Shown here piece by piece: positions 3,588 to 10,320 of a DNA stretch of 17,913 nucleotides. Position 1 is the first letter of the stretch, and every line of letters starts with the position of its first letter. The position numbers were made by a program, and so were the translations under genes. Below the pieces are notes generated by a model that did not search any database, was not told where the DNA came from, and worked only from the letters and a program-made list of their open reading frames with translations. The DNA is from a virus (lineage: Duplodnaviria; Heunggongvirae; Uroviricota; Caudoviricetes): positions 1-17,913 of IMG/VR virus record IMGVR_UViG_2778261300_000005; one strand, 5' to 3'.

Positions 3588-3859
3588 GTATTCGTATTGA
3601 AATTGGCGAACGTTATGTCGTTACCAGTGACAGCTTTCAGTTTATTCTCCACGAGAAAAAGAGAGCGGAAAGCGGTAAAAACACCGGTCAGGAATGGCTG
3701 GCGGTGGTTGGTTATTATCCGAAATTAAGCCAGCTCGTTTCCGGCCTGATGCATCACGATATTCTGACCGGAAGCGCAAAGTCTTTTGCTGATTTAAACG
3801 CGCAGGTTGAGCAACTCAGCAGGCGTTGTTCAGAGGCTTTTGGCTCATATGGCCGTTAA
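3584..3859 (+). CDS. Hypothetical protein, 91 aa, immediately upstream of and overlapping A
   Basis: ATG at 3584 preceded by GGAGA; ATGA-type overlap with the preceding gene; the 3' end overlaps the A start by 11 nt. Confidence 0.55.
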   Translation: MSIRIEIGERYVVTSDSFQFILHEKKRAESGKNTGQEWLAVVGYYPKLSQLVSGLMHHDILTGSAKSFADLNAQVEQLSRRCSEAFGSYGR

Positions 3860-6134
3860 AGCCTCCGGGCGTTTTGTCCCTCCGTCAGCATTTGCTGCAG
3901 GCACCGGTAAGGCGTTTACCGGTGCTTATGCATGGAACGCGCCACGCGAGGCCGTCGGGCGCGAAAGACCCCTTACACGTGACGAGATGCGTCAGGTGCA
4001 AGGTGTTTTATCCACGATTAACCGCCTGCCTTACTTTTTGCGCTCGCTGTTTACTTCACGCTATGACTACATCCGGCGCAATAAAAGCCCGGTGCACGGG
4101 TTTTATTTCCTCACATCCACTTTTCAGCGTCGTTTATGGCCGCGCATTGAGCGCGTTAATCAGCGTCATGAAATGAACACTGACGCGTCGTTGCTGTTTC
4201 TGGCAGAGCGTGACCATTATGCGCGCCTGCCGGGAATGAATGACAAGGAGCTGAAAAAGTTTGCCGCCCGTATCTCATCGCAGCTTTTCATGATGTATGA
4301 GGAACTCTGCGATGCATGGGTTGATGCACATGGCGAGAAAGAATCGCTGTTTACAGATGAGGCGCAGGCGCATCTGTATGGTCATGTTGCTGGCGCTGCA
4401 CGTGCTTTCAATATTTCCCCTCTCTACTGGAAAAAATACCGTAAAGGACAGATGACCACGAGGCAGGCATATTCTGCCATTGCCCGTCTGTTTAACGATG
4501 AGTGGTGGACTCATCAGCTTAAAGGCCAGCGTATGCGCTGGCATGAGGCGTTACTGATTGCTGTCGGGGAGGTCAATAAAGACCGTTCTCCTTATGCCAG
4601 TAAACATGCCATTCGTGATGTGCGTGCACGCCGCCAGGCAAATCTGGAATTTCTTAAATCGTGTGACCTCGAAAACAGGGAAACCGGCGAGCGCATCGAC
4701 CTTATCAGTAAGGTGATGGGCAGTATTTCTAATCCTGAAATTCGCCGGATGGAGCTGATGAACACCATCGCCGGTATTGAGCGTTACGCCGCCGCAGAGG
4801 GTGATGTGGGGATGTTTATCACTCTGACCGCGCCGTCAAAGTATCACCCGACACGTCAGGTCGGAAAAGGCGAAAGTAAAACCGTCCAGCTAAATCACGG
4901 CTGGAATGATGAGGCATTTAATCCAAAGGATGCGCAGCGTTATCTCTGCCGCATCTGGAGCCTGATGCGCACGGCATTCAAGGATAATGATTTACAGGTC
5001 TACGGTTTGCGAGTCGTCGAGCCACACCACGACGGAACGCCGCACTGGCATATGATGCTTTTTTGTAATCCACGCCAGCGTAACCAGATTATCGAAATCA
5101 TGCGTCGCTATGCGCTCAAAGAGGATGGTGACGAAAGAGGAGCCGCGCGAAACCGTTTTCAGGCAAAACACCTTAACCGGGGCGGTGCTGCGGGGTATAT
5201 CGCGAAATACATCTCAAAAAATATCGACGGCTATGCACTGGATGGGCAGCTCGATAACGATACCGGCAGACCGCTGAAAGATACTGCCGCGGCTGTTACC
5301 GCATGGGCGTCAACGTGGCGCATTCCGCAATTTAAAACGGCTGGCCTGCCGACAATGGGTGCTTACCGTGAACTACGCAAATTGCCTCGCGGCGTCAGCA
5401 TTGCTGATGAGTTTGACGAACGCGTCGAGGCTGCACGCGCCGCCGCAGACAGTGGTGATTTTGCGTTGTATATCAGCGCGCAGGGCGGGGCAAATGTCCC
5501 GCGCGATTGTCAGACTGTCAGGGTCGCCCGTAGCCCGTCGGATGACGTTAACGAGTACGAGGAAGAAGTCGAGAGAGTGGTCGGCATTTACGCGCCGCAT
5601 CTCGGCGCGCGTCATATTCATATCACCAGAACCATGGACTGGCGCATTGTGCCGAAAGTGCCGGTCGTTGAGCCTTTGACTTTAAAAAGCGGCATCGCCG
5701 CGCCTCGGAGTCCTGTCAATAACTGTGGAAAGATCACCGGCGGTAATACTTCGTTACCGGCTCCCACGCCTTCTGAGCACGCCGCAGCAGTGCTTAATCT
5801 GGTTGATGACGGTGTTATCGAATGGAATGACCCGGAGGTCGTGAGGGCGCTCAGGGGCGCATTAAAATACGGGCTGAGAACACCAAATCGTCAGCAGAGA
5901 AACGGAAGCCCGTTAAAACCACATGAAATTGCACCATCGGCCAGACTGACCCGGTCGGAAAGAATGCAAATTACCCGTATCCGCGTTGACCTTGCTCAGA
6001 ACGGTATCAGGCCGCAGCGATGGGAGCTTGAGGCGCTGGCGCGTGGCGCGACCGTAAATTATGACGGGAAAAAATTCACGTATCCGGTCGCTGATGAGTG
6101 GCCGGGATTCTCAACAGTAATGGCGCGGACATAA
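3849..6134 (+). CDS. A: Replication initiator protein A (rolling-circle, HUH endonuclease)
   Basis: ATG at 3849 gives 761 aa beginning MAVKASGRFVPPSAFAAGTGK, which matches P2 gpA as I recall it, including its length. Contains the HUH-type metal-binding motif EPHHDGTPHWHMMLF. The ORF-track start at 3807 is a TTG extension. Confidence 0.92.
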   Translation: MAVKASGRFVPPSAFAAGTGKAFTGAYAWNAPREAVGRERPLTRDEMRQVQGVLSTINRLPYFLRSLFTSRYDYIRRNKSPVHGFYFLTSTFQRRLWPRIERVNQRHEMNTDASLLFLAERDHYARLPGMNDKELKKFAARISSQLFMMYEELCDAWVDAHGEKESLFTDEAQAHLYGHVAGAARAFNISPLYWKKYRKGQMTTRQAYSAIARLFNDEWWTHQLKGQRMRWHEALLIAVGEVNKDRSPYASKHAIRDVRARRQANLEFLKSCDLENRETGERIDLISKVMGSISNPEIRRMELMNTIAGIERYAAAEGDVGMFITLTAPSKYHPTRQVGKGESKTVQLNHGWNDEAFNPKDAQRYLCRIWSLMRTAFKDNDLQVYGLRVVEPHHDGTPHWHMMLFCNPRQRNQIIEIMRRYALKEDGDERGAARNRFQAKHLNRGGAAGYIAKYISKNIDGYALDGQLDNDTGRPLKDTAAAVTAWASTWRIPQFKTAGLPTMGAYRELRKLPRGVSIADEFDERVEAARAAADSGDFALYISAQGGANVPRDCQTVRVARSPSDDVNEYEEEVERVVGIYAPHLGARHIHITRTMDWRIVPKVPVVEPLTLKSGIAAPRSPVNNCGKITGGNTSLPAPTPSEHAAAVLNLVDDGVIEWNDPEVVRALRGALKYGLRTPNRQQRNGSPLKPHEIAPSARLTRSERMQITRIRVDLAQNGIRPQRWELEALARGATVNYDGKKFTYPVADEWPGFSTVMART

Positions 6135-6436
6135 TGACAAAGATTCACAAAGTAAAGCTGCACGCAAGATATTTCAACCTTGTGCTGGAGGGAAAAGAAA
6201 CGCACAGAATTTAGGGGGATAGCCGTTATCATGTGTATGAAGCACTTGAAATGTATCTGCATCACTTGGGAGTGTGTCAACGGGGAATTTCCATCTATGT
6301 GATTTTTTGAGAGCAATGCAGTGAAGATAAAGATACTTATTATAAATCAATGTGATAGATGATGCCTCGCAAACGTAAATGATAGTTTTGAAGCTTCAGG
6401 GCTGATGTCGTTCATAAGACTATGTTTACGCTATCA

Positions 6437-6469
6437 TTTATGATAAAAATAATTAATTTTTATCATAAA
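6437..6469. promoter_or_regulatory. Near-perfect 33-bp palindrome (14-bp arms TTTATGATAAAAAT / ATTTTTATCATAAA) directly upstream of the ParB-like gene; candidate operator/promoter
   Basis: Read directly from the sequence; one central mismatch. It lies about 15-50 bp upstream of the ATG at 6485. Related ATGATA/TATCAT half-sites recur at about 6375-6384 and 6431-6444. Confidence 0.35.
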
Positions 6470-6484
6470 GATTCAACAGAGGAT

Positions 6485-7996
6485 ATGTTGATGAATCAAC
6501 TAAAATCAATGAATATCAATAAGTTACTTTTGGATGTTGATAACCCTCGTTTCCCGACGTCAGCAGAAAATCAGCGTGATGCTATTGCCAAGATGCTTGA
6601 CTTGCAGTACGACCGCATTTATCGCTTGGCTAAAGATATTGCTTCGAAAGGTTTAGATCCGTCTGAAAACATATTAGTTTATCCTAGTGAAGAGGAATCT
6701 GGCTTTTTCGTCGTTGCTGAAGGTAATCGTCGAGTTACAGCCCTTAAACTTTTACACTCTCCTAGACTTGCACCAACAGAAAAAGCACGGAAAGCTTTTG
6801 AAAAACTTAAGATTACTCAGCTTAAAGATATTAATGTTATAGATAACTGCGTTCTTTTTGACGATGATGAATATGAGCATTGGGTTAATTTAAAGCATAC
6901 TGGTCAAAATGCTGGAGTTGGAAGAGTTGAATGGACTGCAACAGAAAAAGCACGGCATCTGGCTAGGATGGGTAAGCAGTCATTTGGTAATCAAATACTT
7001 ACATTTATAGAGTTCAATACTGATTTATATAAAGAGATAATTGCTAAAAAAAGACTTTTAAAAATCACAAACATCACGCGTCTTTTTGGTGATTTAAAGG
7101 TGAGGGATTATTTTAATTTAAAAAGCATTAATGGAGTTCTATACTCATATCAGCCTTATGAACGTTTTTGTGCACAATTAAAAAATATTTTAGATGTAAT
7201 GATTGAAGAGGATGATAAAGGTAAGGCTTGTTTTACTGTTAATAGGATTCGTAGCCAAGATGACAGGGTTACATTTATTATTGAACAAAAAATAAAACCT
7301 TCAGAATCTCTTTTAGATAAGCCGTGGAGTTTACTGGAGCCTAAATCTTTTCTTACAGAGAAAAAAGATGATTCTATTGACAAAAATGATGCCTCTGTGA
7401 GTGTAAAGAAAGTAGGTCTTTCAGAAGGTGATGCCTTAAAGAATACAGGTATGGATAAACAGGAAGATGATTATTCTAGACATGTAGGCACAGAAGAGAG
7501 TAAATCTAAAGTTTCGGGTACGGAACAGAATAAAAGCAAGGGAAAAACTCCTCCTAAAGTAGATCGTAATGTGTTGGTGCCATCTTATGTGAAATTTAAT
7601 TTTAGAGGGCATAAAAAATGCTCTAGAATATTTAATGAGCTTAAGTCGCATCTGACATTTGATAATACCCCTAATGCTATCTCAATATTGTTGAGAATAT
7701 TTATAGATCTCTCTGTAAGCACTTTTGTTGAAGAAAACAAGTTACAATTTAAGGAACCGCATAGAACTCCAGGGCTTCATGATAAGGTTAAAATGTGTGC
7801 TAATTTCCTTCGGGAAAATAAAAAGATGACGGGGAGTCAATGTACGGCTGTAATAACTTTCTCGAGCCAAATAACTAAACATGATGGTTCATTGCAGCAG
7901 TATGTACATAACCCACACTTAATTCCCTCAAAAGAGGCTGTCAACACTGAGTGGGATAACTTTGAGTTGTTATTAAGCCTTATTTGGAGTGAGTGA
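6485..7996 (+). CDS. ParB/Srx-like N-terminal domain protein with low-complexity linker and uncharacterised C-terminal domain (cargo gene 1)
   Basis: ORF 6422..7996; likely start ATG 6485 or 6491, with AGAGGA at 6478-6483. N-terminus has ParB-like box motifs (INKLLLDVDNPRF and ILVYP...FVVAEGNRRVTALKLL, compare ParB GERRxRA). Strongly AT-rich, unlike the phage backbone. Confidence 0.7.
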   Translation: MLMNQLKSMNINKLLLDVDNPRFPTSAENQRDAIAKMLDLQYDRIYRLAKDIASKGLDPSENILVYPSEEESGFFVVAEGNRRVTALKLLHSPRLAPTEKARKAFEKLKITQLKDINVIDNCVLFDDDEYEHWVNLKHTGQNAGVGRVEWTATEKARHLARMGKQSFGNQILTFIEFNTDLYKEIIAKKRLLKITNITRLFGDLKVRDYFNLKSINGVLYSYQPYERFCAQLKNILDVMIEEDDKGKACFTVNRIRSQDDRVTFIIEQKIKPSESLLDKPWSLLEPKSFLTEKKDDSIDKNDASVSVKKVGLSEGDALKNTGMDKQEDDYSRHVGTEESKSKVSGTEQNKSKGKTPPKVDRNVLVPSYVKFNFRGHKKCSRIFNELKSHLTFDNTPNAISILLRIFIDLSVSTFVEENKLQFKEPHRTPGLHDKVKMCANFLRENKKMTGSQCTAVITFSSQITKHDGSLQQYVHNPHLIPSKEAVNTEWDNFELLLSLIWSE

Positions 7997-8009
7997 GATT
8001 TGTCTACAT

Positions 8010-8027
8010 CTGGACATGGATGTCCAG
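8010..8027. promoter_or_regulatory. Inverted repeat CTGGACAT-GG-ATGTCCAG between the two cargo genes; candidate operator
   Basis: Perfect 8-bp arms read directly from the sequence, about 40 bp upstream of the methyltransferase ATG. The 2-nt spacer argues for a protein-binding palindrome rather than a hairpin terminator. Confidence 0.3.
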
Positions 8028-8065
8028 AAACTGATAAACTACAAAATCAGGAATGAGAGGGATTT

Positions 8066-8950
8066 ATGAAATTTTATACTCCATTAAGATACCCCGGCGG
8101 GAAAGGTAAGTTATCTTACTTTTTAAAAGATGTTATTGAAAAAAACTCGTTGAATGATGGAGCATATGCAGAACCTTACGCTGGTGGTGCAGGGGTGGCT
8201 TTAGAATTATTATTGGAAGAGTATGTCCGTAAAATCTATATAAATGATGCAGATTTTGCTGTTTATTCTTTTTGGTCATCTGTTGTTAGTGATACTGATG
8301 AGCTTTGCCGACTTATTAGCCGAGCAAAGATAGATATGGATGAATGGTCTTTTCATCGCTATGTTATTTCGAATCCTTCTGAGTTTACTAAGCTTGAGGT
8401 TGGCTTTGCTGCGTTTTTCTTAAATAGAACAAATCGTTCAGGTATTCTCAAGGCGGGGGTTATAGGTGGGAAATCACAAAATGGAAAATGGAAAATGGAT
8501 GTTCGCTTTAACAGGGCGGATTTAATTTCAAGAATTGAGAAGATAGCAAATTATAATCAAAGAATAGTAGTAACTAATCTGGATGCTTTGGATTTTCTTG
8601 ATGCCTTGAATTTTATGGATAATATGGGAAAGGTGGATAAAAATAAAATTCTTTTGTATTTGGATCCTCCTTACTATATTAAAGGGCAAGGGCTTTACAG
8701 GAATTTTTATGAGCATGATGATCATGTATTGGTTATGAAGAAACTCACAGAAATTAATTTCCCAAATTGGCTTGTTTCTTATGATAATGCTAAGGAAATT
8801 AAAGATATTTATAATGAATTTCCGCAAGTTGAGTATTCATTGCAATATACAGCGCATCTCAAAAAATCTGGAGAGGAAGTGATGATTTTTTCTCCTGAAA
8901 TAATTATTCCTAATACCCTGAAAGGGGTCTCAATGCCAACTTGCGCCTGA
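8066..8950 (+). CDS. D12-class (Dam-like) N6-adenine DNA methyltransferase (cargo gene 2)
   Basis: 294 aa; ATG at 8066 preceded by GAGAGGG. N-terminal LRYPGGKGKL and AEPYAGGAGVALELL resemble the E. coli Dam AdoMet-binding region (LKWAGGK, VEPFVGAGSV). FFLNRTNRSG resembles Dam LYLNRYGYNG. The catalytic DPPY motif is present (LYLDPPYY). AT-rich. Confidence 0.85.
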   Translation: MKFYTPLRYPGGKGKLSYFLKDVIEKNSLNDGAYAEPYAGGAGVALELLLEEYVRKIYINDADFAVYSFWSSVVSDTDELCRLISRAKIDMDEWSFHRYVISNPSEFTKLEVGFAAFFLNRTNRSGILKAGVIGGKSQNGKWKMDVRFNRADLISRIEKIANYNQRIVVTNLDALDFLDALNFMDNMGKVDKNKILLYLDPPYYIKGQGLYRNFYEHDDHVLVMKKLTEINFPNWLVSYDNAKEIKDIYNEFPQVEYSLQYTAHLKKSGEEVMIFSPEIIIPNTLKGVSMPTCA

Positions 8951-9097
8951 TTTTACTTATTTTTTGTCAGTAAGTAATTAGTTTGGTGCATTTATTTGCA
9001 TTCATTTTTAAATGCCAGTTCTGGTATCTGACATCAGTGCTGGCGCATTCTGACCATTACTGCTGCACTGCATTTAAAGCCCTGCATGAAGCGGGCG

Positions 9098-9285: not shown

Positions 9286-10320
9286 TCAGCCGTTGTCAGT
9301 GTCCAGTGAGTAGTTTTTAAAGCGGATGACCTCCTGACCGAGCCAGCCGTTTATCTCGCGGATCCTGTCCTGTAACGGGATAAGCTCATTGCGGACAAAG
9401 ACCTTTGCCACTTTCTCAATATCACCCAGCGACCCGACGTTCTCCGGCTTGCCGCCCATCAACTGAAAGGGGATGCGGTGCGCGTCCAGCAGGTCTGCGG
9501 CACTGGCTTTTTTGATATTAAAAAAATCGTCCTTCGTCGCCACTTCACTGAGCGGGATAATTTTAATGCCGTCGGCTTTCCCTTGTGGGGCATAGAGAAA
9601 CAGATTTTTAAAGTTGTTGCGGCCTTTCGACTTCACCATGTTTTCGCGAAGCATTTCGATATCGTTGCGATCCTGCACGGCATCGGTGACGTACATGATG
9701 TATCCGGCATGTGCGCCGTTTTCGTAATACTTGCGGCGGAACAGCGTGGCCGATTCATTCAGCCAGGCAGAGTTAAGGGCGCTGAGATATTCCGGCAGGC
9801 CGTACAGCTCCTGATTAATATCCGGCTCCAGCAGGTGAAACACGGAGCCGGGTGCGAAGGCTGTCGGCTCGTTGAAGGACGGCACCCACCAGTAAACATC
9901 CTCTTCCACGCCACGGCGGGTATATTTTGCCGGTGAGGTTTCCAGTCTGATGACCTTACCGGTGGTGCTGTAACGCTTTTCCAGAAACGCATTACCGAAC
10001 ACCAGAAAATCCAGCACAAAGCGGCTGAAATCCTGCTGGGAAAGCCACGGATGCGGGATAAATGTCGAGGCCAGAATATTGCGTTTGACGTAAATCGGGG
10101 AGCTGTGATGCACGGCAGCACGCAGGCTTTTTGCCAGACCGGTAAAGCTGACCGGTGGCTCATACCATCTGCCGTTACTGATGCACTCAACGTAATCCAG
10201 AATGTCACGGCGGTCGAGTACCGGCACCGGCTCGCCAAAGGTGAATGCTTCCATTTTCGGGGCGCTGGCGGTGATTGTTTTTGCCGCAGGTCGCGGTGTT
10301 TTCCCTTTTTTCTTGCTCAT
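9286..10320 (-). CDS. Q: Portal protein (capsid portal vertex), P2 gpQ
   Basis: 344 aa, the same length as P2 Q as I recall; leftward orientation adjacent to cos; start overlaps the P stop by 1 nt. Confidence 0.9.
   Translation of the reverse strand: MSKKKGKTPRPAAKTITASAPKMEAFTFGEPVPVLDRRDILDYVECISNGRWYEPPVSFTGLAKSLRAAVHHSSPIYVKRNILASTFIPHPWLSQQDFSRFVLDFLVFGNAFLEKRYSTTGKVIRLETSPAKYTRRGVEEDVYWWVPSFNEPTAFAPGSVFHLLEPDINQELYGLPEYLSALNSAWLNESATLFRRKYYENGAHAGYIMYVTDAVQDRNDIEMLRENMVKSKGRNNFKNLFLYAPQGKADGIKIIPLSEVATKDDFFNIKKASAADLLDAHRIPFQLMGGKPENVGSLGDIEKVAKVFVRNELIPLQDRIREINGWLGQEVIRFKNYSLDTDNG

Follow-up and report, generated by a model that had tools for sequence, protein, structure and literature searches.

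PD-lambda-5 is a broad-range anti-phage system that combines a potentially toxic ParB/HEPN protein with a methyltransferase. The system was found in ECOR7, where it was termed 'ParB/HEPN, methyltransferase', and it is viewed as a compacted prophage version of a restriction–modification (R-M) plus abortive-infection (Abi) system (Vassallo et al.; PMC9519451). Cloned together with 272 bp of upstream sequence in a vector without an upstream promoter, it conferred broad and strong defence on an mrr-deleted host (PMC9519451). Among the papers on PD-lambda-5 that we consulted, none gives an account of its mechanism or regulation beyond Vassallo et al. The toxic gene stands first in the operon, an order that raises the question of how self-damage is avoided when the prophage enters a new cell. 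Here, we describe a 33-bp palindrome that lies immediately upstream of the first gene (gene A) of a PD-lambda-5 operon in a P2-like prophage. The operon is carried by a stretch of 17,913 nucleotides (IMG/VR record IMGVR_UViG_2778261300_000005), referred to in its entirety as the window. The system measures 2460 bp in the window and 2461 bp in the published description (PMC9519451).

Several described systems resemble this arrangement in part. Defence cargo in the gpA–portal hotspot of P2 is likewise AT-rich and carries its own promoter, which is active when cloned in K-12 (PMC9519451, PMC9122126); in contrast to the window, no operator or palindrome has been described for such cargo in these reports or in PMC13586616, the text of which contains neither 'palindrom' nor 'inverted repeat'. 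The C-boxes of R-M controllers and the operators of SsoII-type methyltransferases also place a dyad at the toxic-gene promoter of an R-M-like module that needs careful expression. However, the leader preceding gene A in the window has neither a C gene nor a GACT...AGTC-type C-box, and methyltransferase B of the window lacks the extra N-terminal DNA-binding domain of the SsoII-type enzymes. No plausible open reading frame (ORF) for a small regulator was seen in 6215–6490, and none is annotated there in the E. coli records. As with the OB sites of KorB and the parS sites of ParB, the window palindrome adjoins a gene encoding a protein with a KorB/ParB-like N-terminal half, and it overlaps a promoter as some KorB operators do. 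It is nevertheless unrelated in sequence to parS (TGTTNCACGTGAAACA) and OB (TTTAGCSGCTAAA), it is not conserved with its gene, and protein A carries an HEPN domain and belongs to defence rather than to partition or plasmid control. We read the element as the core promoter of the PD-lambda-5 operon overlaid by a young, lineage-specific dyad that is probably a repressor-type operator, a reading drawn from sequence to which we assign a probability of about 0.4.

The sequence-only reading of the window had pointed to a 33-bp palindrome just upstream of the predicted start, and this palindrome is real and non-random. Its arms are complementary at 14 of 14 positions around a 5-nt centre, and the AT-rich element ends 22 nt before the ATG of gene A, which is also the start assigned by PGAP in the E. 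coli records. In dinucleotide-preserving shuffles of the leader (1000) and of the whole cargo at 6215–9000 (300), perfect inverted repeats whose loop was at most 10 nt had arms no longer than 11, and a repeat of 14 occurred in 0/1000 and 0/300 shuffles, respectively. The hexamer ATGATA/TATCAT is present in five copies in the 276-bp leader (6227, 6379, 6432, 6440 and 6461) against 0.75 expected, a count reached by 0/2000 shuffles. Only three further copies lie elsewhere in the 17.9-kb window (eight in all), which is not enriched overall. Both the palindrome and the clustering of the hexamer are far beyond chance. The two recurring half-sites that had been reported also exist, one of them a base away from the position given for it (6372–6385 rather than about 6371–6384). 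The copies TAAATGATAG and CTATCATTTA form a 10-nt inverted repeat with its halves 45 nt apart; about 0.8 such repeats are expected in 276 AT-rich bases by our estimate, so this pair alone is close to chance. A 31-nt stretch at 6319–6349 is 71% identical to 6435–6465.

For comparison with relatives, viral and metagenome collections supplied about 160 loci, to which eight sister contigs were added. In 17 sister loci with 72–78% protein identity, which come from Enterobacter, Klebsiella, Salmonella, Cronobacter and uncultured phages and often occupy the same gpA–portal hotspot, the 75 nt before the start codon could be aligned. Two upstream blocks alone are conserved in these sisters, the hexamer TATGAT and the last 30 nt ahead of the ATG (about 3% divergence), which include the ribosome-binding site, whereas the stretches on either side of TATGATAAAAA diverge by 30–45% between the sisters and the window. 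TATGAT is kept in 16 of the 17 sister sequences (TATGGT in L180; loci are cited by their L numbers), and the base preceding it varies. The sequence-only reading had offered AT-rich promoter elements as a fallback explanation of the repeats, and this was half right: the left arm contains TATGAT, a -10-type hexamer and the only conserved element upstream of the ribosome-binding region. Our consensus scan found an alternative sigma-70-like promoter (Table 1) with AATAAT as its -10; neither its TTTACG nor its AATAAT hexamer occurs in the aligned sisters. A -10 element inside the palindrome is therefore reached by two independent routes, conservation for TATGAT and the consensus scan for AATAAT, and with either choice the palindrome covers both the -10 and the start of the transcript. 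In 96 non-redundant family loci, the frequency of -10-like hexamers peaks between 60 and 21 nt ahead of the ATG; since they are equally frequent on both strands, this peak is partly a matter of AT-richness. Because of the symmetry of the palindrome, a promoter-like site (TCAACA-N18-TATGAT, 6462–6491) is also present on the minus strand, facing the plus-strand one, and the predicted starts of the two nearly coincide.

If TATGAT is the ancestral -10, transcription would start near 6451, and the resulting leader of about 40 nt would end in the conserved ribosome-binding site. The right arm, at a predicted +5 to +18, would then mirror the -10 region, as part of a dyad that is imperfect in the sister lineages. 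In the E. coli lineage, three substitutions and a one-base deletion would have produced the perfect right arm, and an extra TATCAT would have been added directly upstream of the -10. The dyad would extend from -13 to +18, which is where a dimeric repressor would block RNA polymerase, and it is this location that leads us to read it as a lineage-specific operator. Such an operator would tune rather than silence transcription of the potentially toxic gene A. The behaviour of the ECOR7 clone conflicts with the earlier proposal of a regulator that silences the module in the lysogen: since the system defends strongly from a promoterless vector with 272 bp of upstream DNA (PMC9519451), the module is not silent. 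Those 272 bp suffice for expression, the ECOR7 leader being presumably the same as that of the window.

The perfect form of the dyad has a restricted distribution. The exact palindrome was found in only five IMG/VR contigs (L002–L006), each of which carries a PD-lambda-5 locus with at least 97% identity in protein A. The region is single-copy; of 5426 complete E. coli genomes, 22 contain it, and it had no match in the phage collection. A mobile or repeated element was rejected, the region being single-copy and the exact palindrome in IMG/VR being confined to contigs of the same lineage. In the sisters, the right arm reads TTTTGACCATAA, TTTTAACATAA, TTTTGACGTTA and others. It is complementary to the left arm at 10/12 positions in L008, L176 and L086, at 9/12 in L084, at 8/12 in five others and at 6–7/12 in three. 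The imperfect dyads of 9–10/12 in L008, L176, L084 and L086 stand at the same position as in the window and are unlikely by comparison with shuffles (P 0.001–0.011).

At 6456, 6461 and 6463, the right arm of the window departs from that of the nearest sisters (ATTTTTATCATAAA versus GTTTTGACCATAAA). The three sites coincide exactly with the mismatches of the sister arm, and at each of them the base is now the complementary one; loss of one base in the E. coli lineage also adjusted the spacing of the palindrome. As the chance of such substitutions is estimated at about 1e-4, the change of the right arm was directional. The TATCAT at 6432–6437 arose separately, the sisters having TACCAA there. 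The protein tree, read by parsimony, makes the window lineage the more likely derived one, with L180 and L086, on basal branches, sharing the TTGAC/TTAAC state. A TTGAC about 20 nt 3' of TATGAT, at the position of the right arm in the window, is present in L008, L176, L084, L181, L182, L010, L183, L177, L179 and L180; it is kept in most sisters and lost in the window lineage, and no sensible -10 accompanies it as a -35.

The same substitutions can be read without any binding protein. The element may be an AT-rich promoter only, in which an ancestral quasi-palindrome (10/12) was 'corrected' by a hairpin-templated template-switch error of replication and persists because the clade is very young. 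Correction of quasi-palindromes by template switching is a class of mutation described in E. coli, in which, as here, an imperfect inverted repeat is made perfect by concerted changes with a conserved arm as the template. Several concerted changes, all toward full complementarity, are the signature of templated mutation, and it is the conserved left arm that would have served as the template and the right arm that changed. The near-identity of clade members in the leader, the uncompensated break of an arm in L007 described below, the lack of a family-wide palindrome signal and a perfect symmetry over 33 bp that exceeds what protein binding needs are consistent with this explanation as well. 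However, template switching covers only the origin of the palindrome and leaves the other new copies of ATGATA/TATCAT (6432, 6379 and 6227) unexplained: with the palindrome counted as a single event, four events still stand against 0.75 expected (Poisson P about 0.007, an estimate). Between the TATCAT at 6432–6437 and its complement there are only 2 nt, too few for templating by an intrastrand hairpin, and the ancestral 10/12 dyad is itself improbable by chance (P about 0.001). We consider a mutational by-product that has no function of its own to be on the unlikely side.

Several observations also weigh against a promoter overlaid by an operator. L177, L010, L012 and L180 have a weak dyad or none. 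Upstream palindromes are not in excess among the 96 non-redundant family loci, where P ≤0.05 was obtained in 4 against 4.8 expected and the distribution of P values is flat; a palindromic operator is consequently not a trait of the family. The base of the protein tree is nearly a polytomy, and the polarity obtained by parsimony rests on it. For TATGAT, nothing better than 3/6 is available as a -35 at a spacing of 16–18 bp, the sisters having TTAACG at 19 bp. One E. coli locus, L007, carries an A-to-G change in the left arm without a compensating change. The clade is so uniform that selection has had little time to act on the perfect arm, and a natural operator is seldom perfect over as much as 33 bp, such symmetry being more typical of templated mutation. 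As the E. coli clade is 97–100% identical in the leader (20 of 22 genomes at ≥99%), it says nothing about constraint apart from the change in L007. Conservation of the palindrome across homologous cargo, which the sequence-only reading had named as a check, largely failed to appear, the right arm and the extra half-sites being missing or degenerate in the 17 sisters in addition to the lack of an excess in the 96 loci. The half-site itself behaves similarly: ATGAT is not enriched in relatives below 54% identity, and in close relatives TTATGAT occurs 12 times in nine sequences, which leaves about three extra copies against 1.1 expected once the homologous copy is subtracted. Two more distant loci, L021 and L027 (43–45% identity to protein A of the window), have a 10-bp perfect palindrome in common, TTTACGTAAA, about 115–130 nt upstream of gene A.

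If the dyad is an operator, a host factor is somewhat more likely to bind it than the ParB-like protein A, which the sequence-only reading had named first. In that proposal, protein A would bind the dyad through its KorB/ParB-like DNA-binding half and repress its own operon. KorB is a repressor that binds 13-bp palindromes. The structure model of protein A comprises a KorB/ParB-like N-terminal half, a disordered linker (residues 290–351) and a C-terminal HEPN domain, and its Foldseek matches to KorB/ParB extend over about 200 residues. The rmsd of these matches is high (12–16 Å, with E about 4e-3), and protein A has no Pfam match at E ≤0.01, whether to ParB, a helix-turn-helix or any other family, no sequence match in the PDB and only a weak RepB match in NCBIfam (E 0.021). 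The sequence TTATGATAA forms a 9-bp palindrome of its own that is largely conserved with the gene, and the imperfect dyad accompanies the gene in some sisters. It does not, however, track the divergence of protein A, being absent in L010, L012 and L177 at the same identity as L086 and L008, and the conserved TATGAT is more simply a -10. Typical autoregulated families, unlike this one, would show an excess of upstream palindromes. The operator idea thus stands as far as a promoter-overlapping dyad beside a gene for a protein with a KorB/ParB-like N-terminal half is concerned, and falls short in that the dyad is not conserved with the gene; we regard autoregulation by protein A as distinctly unlikely.

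A related possibility is that the ATGATA/TATCAT cluster consists of cognate sites of the system, which the KorB/ParB-like half of protein A recognises when unmodified and methyltransferase B methylates, to give an epigenetic establishment switch at the promoter of gene A. In a new, unmethylated lysogen, protein A would switch off its own promoter by binding there, and methylation by B would later permit steady expression of A. Protein B is a D12-class enzyme whose D12 domain spans residues 9–256 of 294. Its recognition site could not be inferred, because its one solved relative is distant and described merely as an adenine-specific methyltransferase. We hold such a switch to be very unlikely.

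Among host factors, Fur is a candidate because the half-sites resemble the Fur box, whose consensus (GATAATGATAATCATTATC) is documented in PMC4506495. Iron-loaded Fur would bind at 6326–6344, outside the region considered in the sequence-only reading, would spread over 6436–6470 and would lower transcription under iron-rich conditions, the leader having acquired an array of GATAAT-type hexamers. Like Fur boxes and GATAAT hexamer arrays, the leader has ATGATA/TATCAT cores, a site matching the consensus at 15/19 positions (6326–6344) and a cluster of 12–13/19 matches over the promoter, including 13/19 at 6442–6460. In total, eight windows score at least 12/19 against 1.05 expected (P 0.004). For calibration, seven K-12 Fur-regulated promoter regions score 13–17 with 4–12 windows of at least 12/19, and fecA, scanned separately, scores 12 with one window. 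Outside the seven regions, 61 kb of K-12 DNA yielded only one match of at least 15, and just one of the 93 control leaders attains 15. A Fur-box match in the fhuF-yjjZ promoter region shares 11 identical nt with the arm sequence ATGATAAAAAT. Iron regulation of prophage cargo has a precedent in stx1.

The fit to Fur weakens under closer scoring. Under a weight matrix derived from ten K-12 sites, the top-scoring site in the leader obtains 9.75 bits, at the low end of true sites (8.9–19.1), and 3 of 93 controls score as high. The best site is also situated about 100 bp ahead of the presumed promoter. The palindrome itself differs from a Fur box in its spacing, its GATAA./.TTATC ends being separated by 11 bp instead of 7, which is 4 bp too wide for the canonical 19-mer. 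The sisters have no such sites, the locus has no iron-related context, and the system defends well in MG1655 plating assays, presumably in rich medium with active Fur (PMC9519451). A Fur operator is unlikely on balance.

IHF, CRP, PurR, ArcA, NikR, PhoB, lambda-type operators and the hix sites of Hin/Gin were compared with the element by eye on the basis of generally known consensus sequences and rejected, either for failed spacing or for having one half-site only. A relaxed IHF-like pattern matches only at 6227 and 6345 and not at the palindrome. H-NS is expected to bind a stretch of 30% G+C on general grounds, for which the palindrome is not needed. A phage regulator had also been suggested in the sequence-only reading, and here no link to the immunity region was found: the int/repressor/cox region (1–1900) contains nothing that matches the arms or half-sites except for a single one-mismatch match at 342, in the integrase gene.

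The palindrome might alternatively act as RNA. If transcription came from upstream of 6437, the arms would pair as a 14-bp A/U hairpin within the 5' leader and, together with a second hairpin at 6473–6491, could affect the stability or translation of the mRNA. The predicted minimum-energy RNA structure of 6425–6500 (-17.6 kcal/mol, z = -5.2) contains both hairpins. As there is no plus-strand terminator between gpA and gene A, read-through transcripts of the early operon would contain the hairpin. On the other hand, covariation is 0.083 against 0.073 in shuffles, a value reached by 93 of 500 of them, and neither hairpin is significant; no Rfam match was found in the region, and with the best -10 candidate in the left arm this arm would stay untranscribed. 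A functional RNA element is accordingly highly improbable. An intrinsic terminator was rejected, the stem being all A/T with no T run after it, and no terminator-like site was seen in the leader. The hairpin at 6473–6491 (TCAACA-GAGGATA-TGTTGA) displays the GGA of the ribosome-binding site in its loop, and the ATG overlaps the last base of its stem. At this position, the sisters have AGAGGATGTG, which resembles the core of a CsrA-binding site, and GGATGTTGAT recurs at 6532–6541.

The palindrome is a fresh instance of a familiar type of feature, and its interest lies chiefly in offering a way into the regulation of PD-lambda-5. With a promoter and a candidate operator defined, the question of self-damage can be approached concretely. 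Were the binder Fur or the system itself, expression of the defence would be tied to host physiology or to methylation state, respectively. The general importance of the feature is limited, because only one young E. coli lineage has it and it may have arisen by mutational accident.

The features are collected in Table 1.

Table 1. Positions of the features discussed, numbered from the first base of the window.
Feature	Positions	Strand	Basis or remark
Integrase	1–996	minus	
Replication protein gpA	3807–6134		Pfam Phage_GPA, E 3e-124
Non-coding leader of the AT-rich cargo, with the putative PD-lambda-5 operon promoter	6215–6490	plus	Homology break at about 6212–6215; no credible ORF
Fifth ATGATA hexamer copy	6227–6232	minus	Hexamer count
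Fur-box-like GATAAAGATACTTATTATA	6326–6344	plus	15/19 to consensus
Upstream half-site copy TAAATGATAG	6376–6385	plus	Inverted-repeat scan
Alternative, lineage-specific sigma-70-like promoter TTTACG-N17-AATAAT	6425–6453	plus	9/12 match; -10 at the palindrome centre
Half-site copy CTATCATTTA	6431–6440	minus	Exact complement of 6376–6385; with 6440–6445 makes TATCAT-TT-ATGATA; lineage-specific (sisters TTTACCAAT)
Palindrome left arm TTTATGATAAAAAT	6437–6450	plus	Inverted-repeat scan; shuffles
TATGAT, conserved -10-type hexamer	6439–6444	plus	5/6 to TATAAT with A2 and T6 present; 47 nt before the ATG
Palindrome centre AATTA	6451–6455		Part of the 8-bp palindrome AATTAATT, 6451–6458
Palindrome right arm ATTTTTATCATAAA	6456–6469	plus	Perfect form lineage-specific; sisters TTTTGACCATAA and similar
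Ribosome-binding site ACAGAGGA	6476–6483	plus	Invariant in nine aligned sequences
PD-lambda-5 gene A	6491–7996	plus	PADLOC PD-Lambda-5_A, E 5e-168
PD-lambda-5 gene B	8066–8950	plus	D12-class N6-adenine DNA methyltransferase; Pfam PF02086, E 4e-16; PADLOC PD-Lambda-5_B, E 8e-122
Portal gene	9286–10320	minus	Terminase and capsid genes beyond

The cargo between gpA and the portal gene has about 34% G+C, against about 55% for the phage. Directly after gpA, a remnant of a DUF3850/ASCH gene is left at 6134–6214, the 3' part of the gene having been replaced by the AT-rich cargo. Related prophages with other cargo have an intact DUF3850/ASCH gene of 150 amino acids and also a small hypothetical gene, and their homology to the window ends at about 6212–6215.

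The cargo is the two-gene system PD-lambda-5, A then B, both genes matching the PADLOC family models. The pair is found in nearly all the related loci, and its order holds at identities as low as about 25%; in the distant relatives L050, L061 and L077 the methyltransferase gene lies on the strand opposite to gene A. Plus-strand promoter-like sites are present just before gene B at 8011–8040 and 8053–8080, one of them with a TG extension, so that B might be transcribed independently of A. Two PD-lambda-5-like loci, L024 and L025, each with about 38% identity to protein A of the window, occur about 39 kb apart on a single 75-kb viral contig (IMGVR_UViG_3300034072_002256; 9243–16685 and 48549–55991).
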